IMG/VR virus record: IMGVR_UViG_2563366942_000004
Span: 1 to 4,907 of that record
Source of the DNA: a virus
Lineage: Duplodnaviria; Heunggongvirae; Uroviricota; Caudoviricetes
Direction: 5' to 3' (one strand)
DNA: 4,907 nt
Part shown: positions 1-4,622 of the stretch, piece after piece
Layout of the letters: each line of letters starts with the position of its first letter
How positions within the stretch are numbered: the stretch's first letter is position 1
Position numbers and translations under genes: made by a program
Notes under the pieces: generated by a model
Told to the model about the DNA's origin: nothing
Seen by the model: only the letters and a program-made list of their open reading frames with translations
Databases searched by the model: none

Positions 1-1064
1 GTTTTCAGGCCGTTGGGATCTTTCAGTGCATCCAGCCAGTCATAGACAATCTGTACCCAGGTGGTGAACGGACTGTACGCCGTCCAGATATGGAAAGTGA
101 TGGAGCGCGGCGGCGGAATTTCATCACCCCGGGCGCTGAAAAACATCAGGCCGTCACGGGTCCACATGCCCGTGTTTTCACAGATCCACCGCCCGTTACT
201 CTGGTCAAGCTCAGACTGATGGATCACACAGCCATGATGCTCACAAAGGTAGAAAACACTTTCTGGCTTATTCTTCTCCCACTTAAGACCGAAAGGCGAG
301 GCATCATCGCCAAATTTCAGATACTGCTCCTCCCCACAGTGCGGACAGGGCACATAAAAACGCATGAAGTGTGCCGACTCGTTAGCGGCTTTTTCGATCT
401 GGCAGGAGCCTTTGATTTTAGGCGTCGAGCCGCGAATGGATTTTGGCCATACAGAGCCCTCAATACGTTTATCCCCCAGCAGGGTTGGCGAACCCTCTTT
501 TTCAACATCCGGTTCGAACGAGGAAAGCTCGTCATAACAGACCACATCCACGGATTTTTCACGGTAGTTTTTTGCTGCCGCACCACCCAGACACCAGAAC
601 CCCACACCGGAGGAAAAACGCTTCAGGGTGAGCGTATTATCGCGGTGTTTTCTTCCGAACCATGGAGCCAGCTCCAGCAATGCAGGAACATCCCTTATCG
701 TTGGCTCAACATGAGATTTCATAAAATCTTCAGCAGCTGAGTCCGTGGGCTGAAAAAGAAGGCTGTTGCGTGATTTATGCTCAATAAAATAAGCCTCCAC
801 TCCCAGCAACATCTTTGTATAACCAACACGGGCAGATTTAATCAGGTTAACCGTGCGAATCAGATCGTTGCCCATACAGTTCATGATGCCAACCTGAAAC
901 GGCAGTGTTTCCCATCGCCCCGGGGTATAAGACGACTCTTTAGGAAGGTAATAATGTTTATTGGCCCACTGAACTGTCGTCAGTGGAACAGGAATAATGA
1001 GAGATAAAAGCCCTGTAGCTATCGCACCGGCTGCATTAGCTGCCTTCTGCGCGTCTGAAATCAT
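1..1064 (-). CDS. A: Terminase large subunit (lambda gpA-like), N-terminal ~354 codons; 3' end continues beyond window start
   Basis: My own minus-strand translation from ATG at 1064..1062 gives [85 protein letters not shown], later [29 protein letters not shown], and [19 protein letters not shown] at the window edge. These follow my recollection of lambda gpA ([34 protein letters not shown]). The ORF track lists no minus-strand ORF here, which fits a frame that has no stop before the window edge. The start overlaps the nu1 stop by ~29 nt, as in lambda. Not checked by search. Confidence 0.9.
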
Positions 1065-1526
1065 CGATCCACCCGCCCACGTTTTCACCGGCCTTAGCTG
1101 CAACATTGGAGGCTTTCGCGATTTCAGTTTTCACCACATCAAGGTGTGATGGTGAAATGTCCGGATATTTACGCTGTAATGTCAACGGCACACGCACAAG
1201 TATCCCCGAAATCTCCTGTGCCACACGTTGCAGAATGAAGGTAAACAGTTCAGTTTCCAGCACTACTCCGTCTTCACGGGCATTTTTCAGTTCCTGCGCA
1301 TCTGCCTGCGCTTTTGTGAGCCGGTAGCGTTCATAGTCAATGGTGCCGGGTTGTAAATCTGACTCCGCTGCCGCACGCAAATCGTCCAGTTCTTTGCGGA
1401 GCTTTTCGTTTTCGATATCAGTTTCCCTCTGCGCATACCACTGAATTGCCATGGCAGTATCAAATACAGATTCAATGCCCTTACTACCTTTGGAGGCGCA
1501 AGGGAGTCCCTGAGACTGCCAGCGTT
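1036..1526 (-). pseudogene. nu1: Terminase small subunit Nu1, 3' fragment (about codons 22-182), cut off from its 5' end by the IS
   Basis: The track ORF 1036..1608 (-) reads ...[82 protein letters not shown]..., closely following my recollection of lambda Nu1 from its WQEQGMP motif onward. The 29 codons upstream of the W codon (1521..1519) are read from IS left-end DNA and the apparent start is TTG, so the ORF as listed is chimeric. Confidence 0.85.
1521..1526. repeat. Target-site duplication AGCGTT, left copy
   Basis: AGCGTT at 1521-1526 is repeated exactly at 3937-3942. The bases outside each copy differ, so the duplication is at most 6 bp. Removing 1527..3942 restores an uninterrupted nu1 frame (...[13 protein letters not shown]...). 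Confidence 0.75.
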
Positions 1527-1560
1527 TATGAGACGACAATAACTCAGTCCGCCTGGCGCC
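1527..1560 (+). repeat. IS left terminal inverted repeat (imperfect)
   Basis: Left end TATGAGACGACAA... against the reverse complement of the right end TATTAGACGTCAA...: 11 of the first 13 positions match, and both arms end in GCGCC about 30 bp in. Extent is approximate. Confidence 0.5.
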
Positions 1561-1619
1561 GATTATTCTGGCCGGTTTTGTAACCTGAGTGTCATTTACA
1601 TGATCCAACAGGAAATGGC

Positions 1620-3119
1620 GTGACGCTCAATACTTCTCAGGTCAGTTACTATATGACTCAGCGTAAGAAAGGTATAACTCAGCATATCTCGGCCATGAAG
1701 GCTGGTATCTCAGTCCGTTCTGGTCGTCGGATCGAAAAAGGAGAGTGGGCAAAAAACAGTGTTAGGCACTGGCGCACACGCAAAGATCCTCTGGAAGCTG
1801 TGTGGGACAGCATGCTTGTTCCTCTGTTGAAAGAGAGGCCGGCTCTGACACCAACAACTCTGCTGGAGATGCTACAGGATAAATATCCCGGCCAGTACCC
1901 CAACAGCCTTCGAAGAACAATGCAACGGCGGGTCCGCGAATGGAAGCTACAGTATGGTGCAGAGCAGGAGGTCATGTTCCGCCAGCGACATCAGCCCGGT
2001 CTGCGAGGTCTGTCGGACTTTACTGAACTGAAAGGTGTAGTTGTCACCATCGCCGGTAAGTTGTTGGCGCATAAGTTGTATCACTTCCGTCTGGAATGGA
2101 GCCACTGGAGCTGGATGCGGGTTGTGCTGGGTGGTGAGAGCTTCTCTGCTCTGGCTGAAGGTCTGCAGGAAGCCCTCGGACAACTGGGCGGAGTGCCGGT
2201 AGAACATAAAACGGACAGCCTGAGGGCAGCATGGAAACAACAGGGCGAAGATGGACGCCGCGAGCTGACTGAGCGTTATGCTGCTCTCTGTCAGCACTAC
2301 GGAATGCAGGGCGTACACAATAATGCCGGTCGGGGCCACGAAAATGGCTCGGTTGAAAGTGCCCACGGACATCTGAAAAGGCGTATCTGTCAGGCGCTGA
2401 TACTGCGGGGCAGTAACGACTTCAGCACCATAGAAGAATATCAGGCCTTCATCACTCAGCAGGTTATGCGGCACAACCGTAACAATCAGGATCTGGTCAA
2501 GGAAGAACGTCTTCATCTGAAACCGCTGCCGCTTCGTCGCAGTGCTGACTATGATGAGCTGACTGTGAGGGTTAGCCGCAGCAGTACCATCAATGTGAAG
2601 CACGTCGTCTACAGCGTACCTTCCCGGCTTGTAGGTCAACTGTTACGGGTCCGGTTATGGGACGATCGTCTGAGCTGTTACGTTGGCAGCAGCGAGGTCA
2701 TGAGCTGCCCACGTGTCAGACCAGAAAAAGGGAAGACGCGGGCCCGTCGTATCGACTTCCGACATGTGATCGACAGTCTGGCAAAAAAGCCCGGTGCGTT
2801 CTGCCATGCAACGCTGAGAAATGACATCCTGCCAGACGATGAATGGCGGAGGCTGTGGCGTCGCTTATGTAATCATCTGGAACCCGACATGGCAGGCAGG
2901 CTGATGGTACATGCTCTGAAACTGGCTGCAGGATACGACGATATCTCAGTCGTGGCAAAAGGTATGGAGCAGATGCTGAATACCCCGGGAAACGTGGATC
3001 TGCACCGGCTGATGCGCTTCCTGGGTATAAAGGAAAAGGCGTTGCCGGTAGTCAATGTGAAACAGCATAACCTGAGCAGTTATGAGCAACTACTGCGTGG
3101 CAAGGGCGGTTCGCAGTGA
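1620..3119 (+). CDS. istA: IstA transposase (DDE, IS21 family), 499 aa
   Basis: Track ORF 1620..3119, GTG start preceded by AGGAAA (1610-1615). Likely helix-turn-helix near the N-terminus ([16 protein letters not shown]). Candidate catalytic residues in [15 protein letters not shown] and [16 protein letters not shown], which is my reading of a DDE pattern. Stop overlaps the istB start (GTGA at 3116-3119). Confidence 0.9.
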
Positions 3120-3871
3120 GCAATATCCATCCCCTTGAACGCAGCCTGCGTAAACTACGCCTGACACGAGTTGGAGCTGAATGGCACGCTCTGGAAAAAC
3201 GAGCACTGGCAGAAGGCTGGACACCATCGCGCTATCTTCTGACGCTATGCAATGAAGAACTCCTGTGGCGCGAGAGTGAAAAACTGCGTCGTTATAAAAA
3301 GGAGGCCCGGTTGCCAGTTGCCAAAACGCTAAGCGAATACGACTTCAGTCAGGTGCCGGAACTGAATGGAGCTCAGTTCCGGCAACTCTGTGAAACGACA
3401 GACTGGGTTGATGCAGGAGAAAACGTTCTGCTGTTCGGAGCCAGCGGGTTGGGGAAAAGCCATCTGGCGGCAGCGATCGTGGATGGCGTAGTAGGCCAGG
3501 GCTACCGGGCCCGGTTCTACAGCGCAGGAGAGTTGTTGCAGGAACTACGTAAAGCCAGAGCGCAGTTGAAACTGAATGAGCTGCTACTGAAACTGGATCG
3601 CTACCGGGTGATAGTGGTGGATGATCTTGGCTATGTCAAACGCGACAGCGCCGAAACGGGAGTACTGTTCGAGTTAATAGCGCATCGCTATGAACGTGGG
3701 AGCCTGGTGATAACCAGTAACCATCCGTTCAGCATGTGGGGCAGCATCTTCGTGGATGAGACTATGGCGGTGGCGGCGGCAGACCGGCTGATCCATCACG
3801 GATATATGTTCGAACTGAAAGGTGAAAGCTACAGGAAAAAGACAGCGAAGGCAGTAACAAGCGCGACTTGA
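3116..3871 (+). CDS. istB: IstB AAA+ ATP-binding helper protein, 251 aa
   Basis: Track ORF 3116..3871. Walker A GASGLGKSHLA and Walker B VIVVDDLGY. GTG start overlaps the istA stop by 4 nt, the usual coupled arrangement in IS21-family elements. Confidence 0.9.
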   Translation: MSNIHPLERSLRKLRLTRVGAEWHALEKRALAEGWTPSRYLLTLCNEELLWRESEKLRRYKKEARLPVAKTLSEYDFSQVPELNGAQFRQLCETTDWVDAGENVLLFGASGLGKSHLAAAIVDGVVGQGYRARFYSAGELLQELRKARAQLKLNELLLKLDRYRVIVVDDLGYVKRDSAETGVLFELIAHRYERGSLVITSNHPFSMWGSIFVDETMAVAAADRLIHHGYMFELKGESYRKKTAKAVTSAT

Positions 3872-3902
3872 TGTCGCACTGAAGGGGGCGGCCAGTATAG
3901 TT

Positions 3903-3936
3903 GGCGCGAGTCGGCAAAACTAGTTGACGTCTAATA
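3903..3936 (-). repeat. IS right terminal inverted repeat (imperfect)
   Basis: Reverse complement of 3903-3936 is TATTAGACGTCAACTAGTTTTGCCGACTCGCGCC, which pairs with the left end at 1527-1560. Confidence 0.5.
3924..3929 (+). promoter_or_regulatory. Outward-facing -35-like hexamer TTGACG in the IS right end
   Basis: TTGACG sits 7 bp inside the right terminus and points out of the element. IS21-family right ends are known to carry an outward -35. I found no good -10 at the proper spacing in the present flank. Confidence 0.3.
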
Positions 3937-3942
3937 AGCGTT
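3937..3942. repeat. Target-site duplication AGCGTT, right copy
   Basis: Exact repeat of 1521-1526, directly abutting the IS right terminus. Confidence 0.75.
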
Positions 3943-4000
3943 CAATCGTCCGCGGGTCCACGTTGAAAATTTCGGCAAGCCTCTTTTTATTAACCTTCAT
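3937..4000 (-). pseudogene. nu1: Terminase small subunit Nu1, 5' fragment (codons 1-21)
   Basis: Minus-strand ATG at 4000..3998 translates [21 protein letters not shown], compared with lambda Nu1 MEVNKKQLADIFGASIRTIQN from memory. The frame then runs into IS right-end sequence (LLDVN, stop at 3922..3920). Confidence 0.8.
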
Positions 4001-4025
4001 GAAAACAACCCATTATCAAATACAA

Positions 4026-4143
4026 GGCCCGACATGAAAACGCCAGAAAAAGGCATTTTCGGACACTTTCATGTCGGACCTTTACGGATGCAATATTAAA
4101 AAAAAACAAAAAGTTATATTCGAGAAGTACCGACACGATTTTC
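4026..4143 (-). promoter_or_regulatory. cosB-like terminase-binding region: three R-like repeats around an A-tract
   Basis: CCGACATGAAA at 4029-4039 and CCGACACGATTTT at 4130-4142 share one orientation; TTTCATGTCGG at 4067-4077 is inverted; an A-tract lies at ~4095-4113. This order (cosN, R3, bend site, inverted R2, R1, nu1 start) matches what I recall of lambda cosB. Element limits are approximate. Confidence 0.55.
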
Positions 4144-4177
4144 CCTGAAAAATTTTCATAAATAGTGAAAAACCGCG

Positions 4178-4189
4178 AGGTCGCCGCCC
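4178..4189 (-). other. cosN cohesive-end sequence (minus strand 5'-GGGCGGCGACCT-3')
   Basis: The reverse complement of 4140-4189 is GGGCGGCGACCTCGCGGTTTTTCACTATTTATGAAAATTTTTCAGGG. The first 17 nt are identical to the phage lambda left end as I remember it and the following ~30 nt are near-identical. Plus-strand 4190-4200 (CGTAACCTGTC) is the complement of the lambda right-end ...GACAGGTTACG. Confidence 0.8.
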
Positions 4190-4225
4190 CGTAACCTGTC
4201 GGATCGCCGGAAAGGACCCGCAAAA

Positions 4226-4240
4226 TGATAATAATTATCA
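4226..4240. promoter_or_regulatory. Fur-box-like 7-1-7 palindrome TGATAATAATTATCA
   Basis: Exact match to the 7-1-7 Fur-box consensus TGATAATnATTATCA. It lies ~36 bp beyond cosN and ~150 bp upstream of the ORF at 4389. A weaker ATAATcaATTAT palindrome sits at 4283-4294. Function is inferred only. Confidence 0.45.
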
Positions 4241-4388
4241 TCTACATGTCACAACGTGCATCTACACCATCAAACCACGTCAAATAATCAATTATGACGC
4301 AGGTATCGTATTAATTGATCTGCATCAACTTAACGTAAAAACAACTTCAGACAATACAAATCAGCGACACTGAATACAGGGCAACCTC

Positions 4389-4622
4389 ATGTCAACGAAG
4401 AACAGAACCCGCAGAACAACAACCCGCAACATCCGCTTTCCTAACCAAATGATTGAACAAATTAACATCGCTCTTGTTCAAAAAGGGTCCGGGAATTTCT
4501 CAGCCTGGGTCATTGAAGCCTGCCGCCGGAGACTGTGCTCAGAAAAAAGAGTTTCGCCTGAAGCAAACAAAGAAAAGAGTGACATTACTGAATTGCTCAG
4601 AAAACAGGTTAGACCAAATTGA
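4389..4622 (+). CDS. Small ribbon-helix-helix-like DNA-binding protein (77 aa), function unknown
   Basis: Track ORF 4389..4622, with a weak AGGG ribosome-binding site 8 nt upstream. The segment RNIRFPNQMIEQINIALVQKGSGNFSAWVIEACRRRL follows the strand-helix-helix pattern of Arc/MetJ/CopG-type proteins after a basic N-terminal tail. Its position beside the nu1/cos junction resembles the small ylcI/ynfO-class ORFs of E. coli cryptic prophages; that is unverified recall. Confidence 0.55.
   Translation: MSTKNRTRRTTTRNIRFPNQMIEQINIALVQKGSGNFSAWVIEACRRRLCSEKRVSPEANKEKSDITELLRKQVRPN

Follow-up and report, generated by a model that had tools for sequence, protein, structure and literature searches.

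In the 4,907-nt stretch of viral DNA analysed here (the window), gene 1 of a phage-21-type lambdoid prophage, which encodes the small terminase subunit, has very probably been interrupted by transposition of a complete ISEc10 element. Each partner has a known counterpart of at least 99.9% identity, and the locus is a clean, fully resolved case of an active insertion sequence (IS) inactivating a prophage. The insertion in gene 1 is well explained and of a kind already known, and the same instance is visible in a public genome; apart from correct annotation its significance is slight, and it raises no new question. An earlier note on this DNA had described an IS21-family element splitting the small terminase gene with a clean 6-bp target duplication, and all of its coordinates hold to the base. 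The refuting conditions that it set were checked and none came true, nor does any observation contradict the structural account. The insertion comprises the following features.

1036..1526, minus strand: 3' piece of gene 1, from bases 2 and 3 of codon 20 to codon 182 and the stop; it includes the left duplication copy
1521..1526, no strand: left copy of the target-site duplication, AGCGTT, which is single at the empty site
1527..3936, plus strand: complete ISEc10, 2410 bp, IS21 family (full-length 99.9% matches and termini from nine copies)
1527..1575, plus strand: left terminal inverted repeat of ISEc10, imperfect (34/49 nt match the reverse complement of the right end)
1620..3119, plus strand: istA, IS21-family transposase, 499 aa (NCBIfam NF033546)
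3116..3871, plus strand: istB, AAA+ helper ATPase, 251 aa, GTG start (Pfam IstB_IS21, NCBIfam NF038214)
3888..3936, plus strand: right terminal inverted repeat of ISEc10 (34/49 outer nt complementary to the left end)
3937..3942, no strand: right copy of the target-site duplication, AGCGTT (sequence comparison)
3920..4000, minus strand: 5' stump of gene 1, a 26-aa peptide (translation)

The 5' stump consists of codons 1-21 (4000-3938), followed by LLDVN contributed by the right end of the IS and a TAG stop (3922-3920); in E. coli strain MS 21-1, PGAP annotates the equivalent of 3938-4000 as a partial small-terminase pseudogene. Deletion of 1527-3942 restored the continuous minus-strand frame of 182 codons that the earlier note had predicted, with WQSQGLPC... 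directly after the junction. The restored 182-aa protein matches phage 21 gp1 (AAA32339.1) at every residue (100%), and the restored DNA of cos, gene 1 and gene 2 agrees at 99.9% with the phage 21 records X02501, M81255 and OL657228. The flanking frames also align to Nu1 across the junction, a check proposed beforehand: residues 1-163 matched positions 1-163 of the 164-position Pfam profile Phage_Nu1 with 271.9 bits.

The gene had been named nu1. It is a homologue (Pfam Phage_Nu1), gene 1 of phage 21, and not nu1 itself, since its product shares 61% identity with lambda Nu1 across residues 1-98 (60/98). Lambda Nu1 (PDB 1J9I, 6HN7) shares the Pfam family, the length class, the N-terminal winged helix-turn-helix and the location by cosB, whereas its recognition-helix residues and R-box sequences differ from those of the phage 21 type. 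For both lambda and 21, packaging of the phage's own DNA exceeds that of the other's by a factor of over 1000, and recognition-helix residues 20 and 24 determine this specificity (PMC4669245). Compared with phage 21, the encoded protein is identical and the overlap of gene 1 with gene 2 is kept, the difference being that the gene is split here by an IS.

The cut had also been placed in the N-terminal DNA-binding region, which the structural comparison bears out. Restored residues 1-54 are identical to the DNA-binding domain in PDB 7LWR and homologous to the lambda structures 1J9I and 6HN7, and codons 20-22, which the duplication spans, belong to the recognition helix of its winged helix-turn-helix. 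The 3' piece is promoter-distal and lacks half of this fold. Next to the interrupted gene lie cos, whose elements were placed by reference to the feature annotation of M81255 and OL657228, and the large terminase gene.

4003..4220, minus strand: cos, phage-21-type
4017-4003, minus strand: IHF site I0
4039-4024, minus strand: cosB R1
4082-4067, minus strand: cosB R2
4118-4103, minus strand: cosB I1
4140-4125, minus strand: cosB R3
4160-4146, minus strand: I2
4189-4178, minus strand: cosN, 12-nt cohesive-end sequence GGGCGGCGACCT
4220-4209, minus strand: R4 (cosQ region)
1..1064, minus strand: large terminase gene (phage 21 gene 2 type), 5' part, 354 codons (Pfam GpA_ATPase, 195 bits)

We found cosN, R1-R3 and R4 to be identical to phage 21, in agreement with the previous description of cos as intact, and R1 lies 24 nt upstream of the gene 1 ATG. 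From cosN through gene 1 the sequence is identical to that of phage 21 save for a single additional base in the A/T run at 4098-4106, between I1 and R2, a variant that also occurs in other prophages. The ATG of gene 2 at 1064-1062 (start mapped from M81255) produces a 29-nt overlap with the end of gene 1. The large subunit had likewise been called intact; the window shows only its first 354 codons, but its counterpart at this locus in MS 21-1 is complete at 642 aa and bears no pseudogene flag. In its cos and head genes the prophage essentially equals phage 21. Past R4 (window positions above 4207) the likeness to phage 21 ends, and the prophage is a mosaic because the sequence beyond cosQ/R4 no longer resembles phage 21. 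Genes of the ylcI/ynfO and DUF1398 types adjoin cos in the window. An 83-aa ORF at 3990-4241 spans cos and was dismissed as spurious.

The break within the recognition helix strongly suggests that cosB recognition, and with it self-packaging, has been lost. In the undamaged prophage, gp1 would use this helix to bind the cosB R boxes and would anchor the large subunit beside cosN; a prophage devoid of intact gp1 should therefore neither cut nor package its own DNA, despite undamaged cos and large-subunit gene. Expression of gene 2 and the downstream head genes may also be reduced, as the late transcript crosses 2.4 kb of antisense IS, and a disturbed translational coupling of gene 2 to gene 1 could lower it further. 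This polarity is uncertain, since late transcription modified by Q may continue across the IS. Within the IS, the minus strand was no richer in terminator-like sites than shuffled sequence. When 1000-4400 was scanned for promoters and terminators, the counts lay near those for shuffled sequence, and no promoter faced outward at the IS's left end. Prophage predictors would count a terminase as present here even though self-packaging should be lost. Its undamaged state corresponds exactly to gene 1 and cos of phage 21, which are well studied, so packaging studies could use the locus as a natural gp1-null control.

The assignment of the element to the IS21 family, made previously from the letters alone, was upheld: both IstA and IstB pass the curated family profile cut-offs, and RefSeq names the matching copies, those of CFT073 among them, 'IS21-like element ISEc10 family'. 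IstA matched the equivalog profile NF033546 with 227 bits (cut-off 160; profile positions 2-293 of 294) and is identical to WP_000174402.1 of MS 21-1, the same protein as in the ISEc10 reference. Among Pfam profiles Mu-transpos_C_2 alone passed on IstA, rve giving no match at E<=0.001, and a sequence search found no solved structure for IstA. IstB reached 209 bits with IstB_IS21 and 267 bits with NF038214 (cut-off 200), and matched the IS5376 IstB structure 8Q3W with E=6e-45. The two ORFs lie on the same strand, with the istA stop and the istB start sharing 4 nt (GTGA). At residue 6 of IstB the window has Pro where the reference has His, the sole private substitution in this protein; it stems from one of the three private base changes of the window's ISEc10 copy, at 1764, 3132 and 3887.

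Positions 1527-3936 matched copies in 526 genomes with 99.9% identity over the full length and the copies named ISEc10 by RefSeq, CFT073 included, with 99.8-99.9% across positions 1-2410; the ISEc10 reference agrees at 99.9% over 2410 bp as well as in termini and 6-bp duplication. The window and eight other independent insertions (9/9) share the termini TATGAG...CTAATA and a perfect 6-bp duplication. IS21-family elements create target-site duplications of 4-8 bp, and the 2410-bp length and imperfect terminal inverted repeats likewise agree with this family (about 2-2.7 kb). Many IS21 members end in 5'-TG...CA-3', which is typical of the family without defining it. None of the nine ISEc10 copies has such ends, TG occurring only at positions 3-4 of the left end; we treat this as a peculiarity of ISEc10 that gives no ground for excluding it from the family. 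ISEc10 was first catalogued from uropathogenic E. coli CFT073. Under laboratory selection, fresh ISEc10 insertions arose in CFT073 (PMC7482066). Compared with ISEc10 elsewhere, the insertion site described here is new, MS 21-1 excepted.

Related genomes supply the empty site in abundance, as the earlier note had suggested looking for. EC21GDE043 shows it base by base (...GACTGCCAGCGTTCAATCGTCC..., with a single AGCGTT) and carries the intact 182-aa gene annotated as WP_000867568.1, and the uninterrupted site occurs in at least 1194 complete E. coli genomes, counted by at least 80% coverage of a 600-bp query centred on the junction. By comparison, the junction of gene 1 with ISEc10 was found in one of 5426 complete genomes, MS 21-1, which differs from the window at six positions. 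ISEc10 is multicopy (nine copies in MS 21-1), and repeats are a classic cause of mis-assembly, so one might ask whether the insertion is an artefact such as a mis-join at the repeated IS. We give this reading practically no weight and rejected it on two grounds: both junctions carry the perfect 6-bp duplication, and a mis-join would not duplicate a sequence that is single at the empty site; and MS 21-1, an independent complete genome with six differences, has the same structure. Two other genomes, which gave the next-best matches to the whole window, were considered as carriers of the same event and rejected. In CMZE120, a related prophage with an intact gene 1 has ISEc10 in its holin gene essD, and in OkiPb01684 it sits in zinT, the adjoining small terminase gene being truncated by ISKpn26; the different sites (essD and zinT) mark these insertions as independent events.

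ISEc10, an active IS21-family element of E. coli, would thus have transposed into gene 1 of the prophage, with a staggered cut at the target doubling AGCGTT across codons 20-22 (Glu-Arg-Trp). The event is probably recent in evolutionary terms; the perfect duplication, the flanks 99.9% identical to phage 21 and the occurrence in one of 5426 genomes all fit the earlier judgement that the insertion is 'fairly recent'. We regard it as ordinary decay of a resident prophage, of which it would form a single step. The cryptic prophages of K-12 carry damaged Nu1-type genes, nohD (DLP12) and nohA (Qin), which are old deletion remnants. There, too, the functional small terminase is lost while adjacent late-region genes are kept, but gene 1 in the window is merely interrupted and its halves are identical to a functional phage gene. 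The IS-truncated small terminase gene of strain OkiPb01684 offers a further parallel.

The insertion need not have been what disabled the prophage. In the prophage at this locus of MS 21-1, an IS3 element with a group II intron inside it divides the J-type tail-tip gene, and two further genes, one for lysis and one of DUF1364 type, are partial; given these other disabling lesions, the IS in gene 1 is only one of the blocks to phage production. The prophage may therefore have been dead already when ISEc10 arrived, making the hit in gene 1 a neutral one in a decaying element, a reading to which we assign an appreciable but minor probability. The head, tail-shaft, replication and regulatory genes of the MS 21-1 prophage are all annotated as intact, and this, like the 99.9% identity of the IS flanks to phage 21, speaks against that reading. 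The J::IS3 junction, searched for in other genomes, was present in MS 21-1 only, so that the order of the lesions cannot be read from their distribution. Prior inactivation is compatible with the structural finding and would alter only which lesion came first.

Since its cos is intact, the element could stay packageable and mobilisable even with gene 1 interrupted if gp1 were supplied in trans, either by another resident prophage or by a superinfecting phage with the packaging specificity of 21. A gene 1 of the 21 type is widespread among E. coli genomes. Passive prophages with a matching cos can be packaged by a helper, which is an established system in the laboratory (PMC4669245). We nevertheless consider such rescue unlikely: a megablast search of the MS 21-1 chromosome record, which would miss homologues below about 85% identity, detected only IS-derived matches and no second 21-type gene 1 or cosB, and the added IS elements lengthen the DNA between cos sites. 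The queries for such a second copy joined 100 nt of an IS end to either half of gene 1. Each matched nine places in MS 21-1, and since these equal its nine chromosomal ISEc10 copies, no second gene 1 or cosB was detectable.

Transposition of ISEc10 into gene 1, the reading that we prefer, also created a hybrid reading frame at the left end of the IS.

1036..1539, minus strand: hybrid ORF with a TTG start in the left end of the IS, or alternatively a TTG at 1608 (ORF list, translation)

Its predicted product is gp1 without residues 1-20, and such a truncated gp1 could be translated from the TTG in the IS end. In MS 21-1, PGAP annotates the hybrid ORF as a 167-aa 'terminase small subunit' (WP_016235658.1), a label that makes it look like an ordinary one. 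The truncated protein might have no DNA-binding helix and yet keep the self-assembly and large-subunit-binding regions. That the hybrid ORF (1539 or 1608 to 1036) might in this way poison the terminase of incoming 21-type phages, as an accidental packaging-interference defence, strikes us as very improbable. PICI proteins that redirect the terminase of a helper phage offer a loose comparison for such a hypothesised truncated gp1.

The earlier note had read this DNA as an IS21-family element splitting nu1 of a lambda-like prophage, flanked by a 6-bp target duplication. The features of the window are arranged as follows:

Left edge to 1064, minus strand: terminase large subunit frame, running off the edge, with its ATG at 1064-1062 (Pfam GpA_ATPase, 195 bits)
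1036-1526, minus strand: 3' part of the small terminase frame, overlapping the large subunit frame by 29 nt
1620-3119, plus strand: ORF of 499 aa, IS21-family transposase
3116-3871, plus strand: ORF of 251 aa, IstB helper ATPase
ATG at 4000, minus strand: start of a short gene, the 5' end of the small terminase gene
Past the ATG at 4000: cos-like region
4389-4622: DUF3950 (YlcI/YnfO-type) gene
From 4680: start of a DUF1398 gene

The hexamer AGCGTT is present twice (1521-1526 and 3937-3942), and the 2410 bp between the copies, starting with TATGAGACG and ending with CGTCTAATA, have imperfect inverted repeats as ends, in which 34 of the outer 49 nt match. The 499-aa protein scores above the cut-off of the NCBIfam equivalog for IS21-family transposases (NF033546; 227 bits against 160), as does the 251-aa protein for the model of the IstB helper ATPase (NF038214; 267 bits against 200), which upholds the assignment of istA and istB to the IS21 family. 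The smaller protein also matches Pfam IstB_IS21 (209 bits) and the solved IS5376 IstB (8Q3W, E=6e-45). Of 5426 complete E. coli genomes, 526 have a full-length match to all 2410 bp at 99.9% identity, located on chromosomes as well as plasmids, and RefSeq labels the matching copies 'IS21-like element ISEc10 family'. ISEc10 is mobile: laboratory selection on CFT073 yielded new copies inserted near lpp (PMC7482066). We compared eight further insertions in differing contexts, which defined the ends independently of the locus in the window:

essD (holin gene) of CMZE120, at about 9592-12001 of that locus (L002); duplication TACGTC
zinT of OkiPb01684
One site in each of CEA106S, 118UI, CFT073 and CU568-3
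A plasmid of AR_0019 that bears Tn3
A second site in MS 21-1

All eight have identical termini and a perfect 6-bp duplication (TACGTC, CAAAAC, ACGTCC, CTGATC, GGCTCC, GTCTTC, GGTGCC and GCCCTG), and the 6-bp repeat in the window is therefore the normal footprint of ISEc10. The final base is C in seven of the nine target duplications, six of those ending in TC or CC; ISEc10 may have a weak target preference for such sites, nine being too small a sample to judge. The CMZE120 prophage is a close relative with an intact small terminase gene, and its essD copy represents a second independent ISEc10 strike on a late gene of that prophage type. The zinT copy in OkiPb01684 lies about 0.4 kb from a Nu1-type small terminase gene apparently truncated by the IS5-family element ISKpn26 (8776-10215 of that locus, L003).

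Deletion of 1527-3942 gives a continuous 182-codon frame, as the earlier note stated. The rejoined protein covers the whole Pfam Phage_Nu1 profile (271.9 bits) and is 100% identical to bacteriophage 21 gp1 (AAA32339.1, M81255), so that the flanking frames align across the junction. Across the stretch that starts at cosN and takes in gene 1 and part of gene 2, the rejoined DNA agrees with three independent phage 21 records at 99.9% identity. The rejoined protein shares 60 of 98 residues with lambda Nu1 over the part present in PDB 6HN7. Thus, the interrupted gene, a homologue of lambda nu1, is gene 1 of phage 21; it had been correctly recognized as a Nu1-type small terminase gene but wrongly assigned to the lambda type. 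The expected empty site was found in EC21GDE043, which aligns base for base with a single AGCGTT and has the 182-aa gene annotated intact, and at least 1194 genomes cover 80% or more of a 600-bp query with the junction at its centre. In one assembly of Nissle 1917 (NZ_CP007799.1, 1350329-1351403), the match to the 3' part of gene 1 falls into two pieces over 1075 bp, a stretch with two 'terminase small subunit' annotations; another Nissle assembly has a single copy, and the two pieces could mean that the stretch is locally duplicated or that the assemblies differ.

Among complete genomes, only E. coli MS 21-1 (NZ_CP146670.1) carries ISEc10 at the same site of gene 1. The window differs from this record by six single bases (1764, 3132, 3887, 4221, 4266 and 4617) and is therefore a close relative or another assembly rather than the record itself. 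Three differences lie within the IS and are absent from the gene 1 copy of MS 21-1 and from the CMZE120 and CEA106S copies, one of them giving Pro6 instead of His6 in IstB; one of the differences outside the IS changes the last YlcI residue (Asn in the window, Asp in MS 21-1). The six differences could stem from a sister strain or from sequencing errors in another assembly.

We transferred the cos features onto the window from the annotations of M81255 and OL657228. The 12-nt cohesive-end sequence (4189-4178) and R3, R2, R1 and R4 are identical to those of phage 21, and gene 2 is intact in the part within the window and in full in MS 21-1, bearing out the claim of an intact cos and large subunit. 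From cosN to gene 1, the window departs from phage 21 at one place only: the A/T run separating IHF site I1 from R2 (4098-4106) is nine bases long instead of the eight in phage 21 and EC21GDE043, which alters the distance between R3 and R2 by 1 bp; the nine-base run is common to other prophages (BH100, NU14). A 27-nt inverted repeat (4024-4050 and 4056-4082) was rejected as a separate feature, as it corresponds to cosB R1 and R2 in opposite orientation in the phage 21 annotation. The phage 21 alignment stops just past R4/cosQ (beyond 4207; boundary region 4207-4355), and the prophage is therefore a mosaic with 21-type packaging and head genes. The right end, with its DUF3950 and DUF1398 genes, is unlike that of phage 21, placing a mosaic boundary directly beside cos.

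Within gene 1, the break falls in the N-terminal DNA-binding region, as proposed. Over residues 1-54, the restored protein shows no difference from the DNA-binding domain solved as PDB 7LWR and is homologous to that of lambda gpNu1 (1J9I). Feiss and colleagues placed the recognition helix here, with residues 20 and 24 setting lambda-versus-21 packaging specificity (PMC4669245). Because the duplicated AGCGTT spans codons 20-22 (Glu-Arg-Trp), the recognition helix is cut through. Given what is established about terminases in PMC4669245 and in the lambda/21 work cited there, gp1 without its helix-turn-helix would be expected not to bind cosB; the large subunit would then be unplaced at cosN, and concatemers would be neither cut nor packaged. 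Polarity of the IS on gene 2 is also possible.

Queries built from 100 nt of one IS end plus the gene 1 half beside it matched nine places each in MS 21-1, whichever end was used. This number equals the count of ISEc10 copies, suggesting that a resident second gene 1 is absent, and rescue in trans from such a copy seems unavailable on this sequence evidence. The tail-tip (J-type) gene of the same prophage is split by an IS3-family element (2471-5954 of the MS 21-1 locus, L001), in which an ltrA-encoding group II intron forms a nested insertion, and one lysis gene is partial; the prophage thus has several lesions, of which the IS in gene 1 is one. The J::IS3 junction, too, was found in MS 21-1 only among 5426 genomes and therefore does not show which lesion came first. 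Overall, the initial observation was confirmed and its interpretation supported apart from the phage type, with the mosaic prophage and the additional lesions as refinements. That IS elements inactivate prophage genes is textbook knowledge, both partners are already known as judged by identity (ISEc10, 99.9%; phage 21 gene 1, 100% at the protein level), and RefSeq already contains the same structure.

The 5' remnant of gene 1 encodes a 26-aa stump, comprising 21 gp1 residues followed by LLDVN from the IS end, and translation of the 3' piece could start solely at a TTG within the IS end. The resulting hybrid ORF (1036-1539; 21036-21539 in L001) runs from this TTG in the left ISEc10 end into gene 1 codons 21-182. 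In MS 21-1, PGAP calls it a 167-aa 'terminase small subunit' (WP_016235658.1) without a pseudogene flag, and the partial flag falls only on the 63-nt 5' stump. The unflagged hybrid is an annotation trap for prophage-completeness tools.
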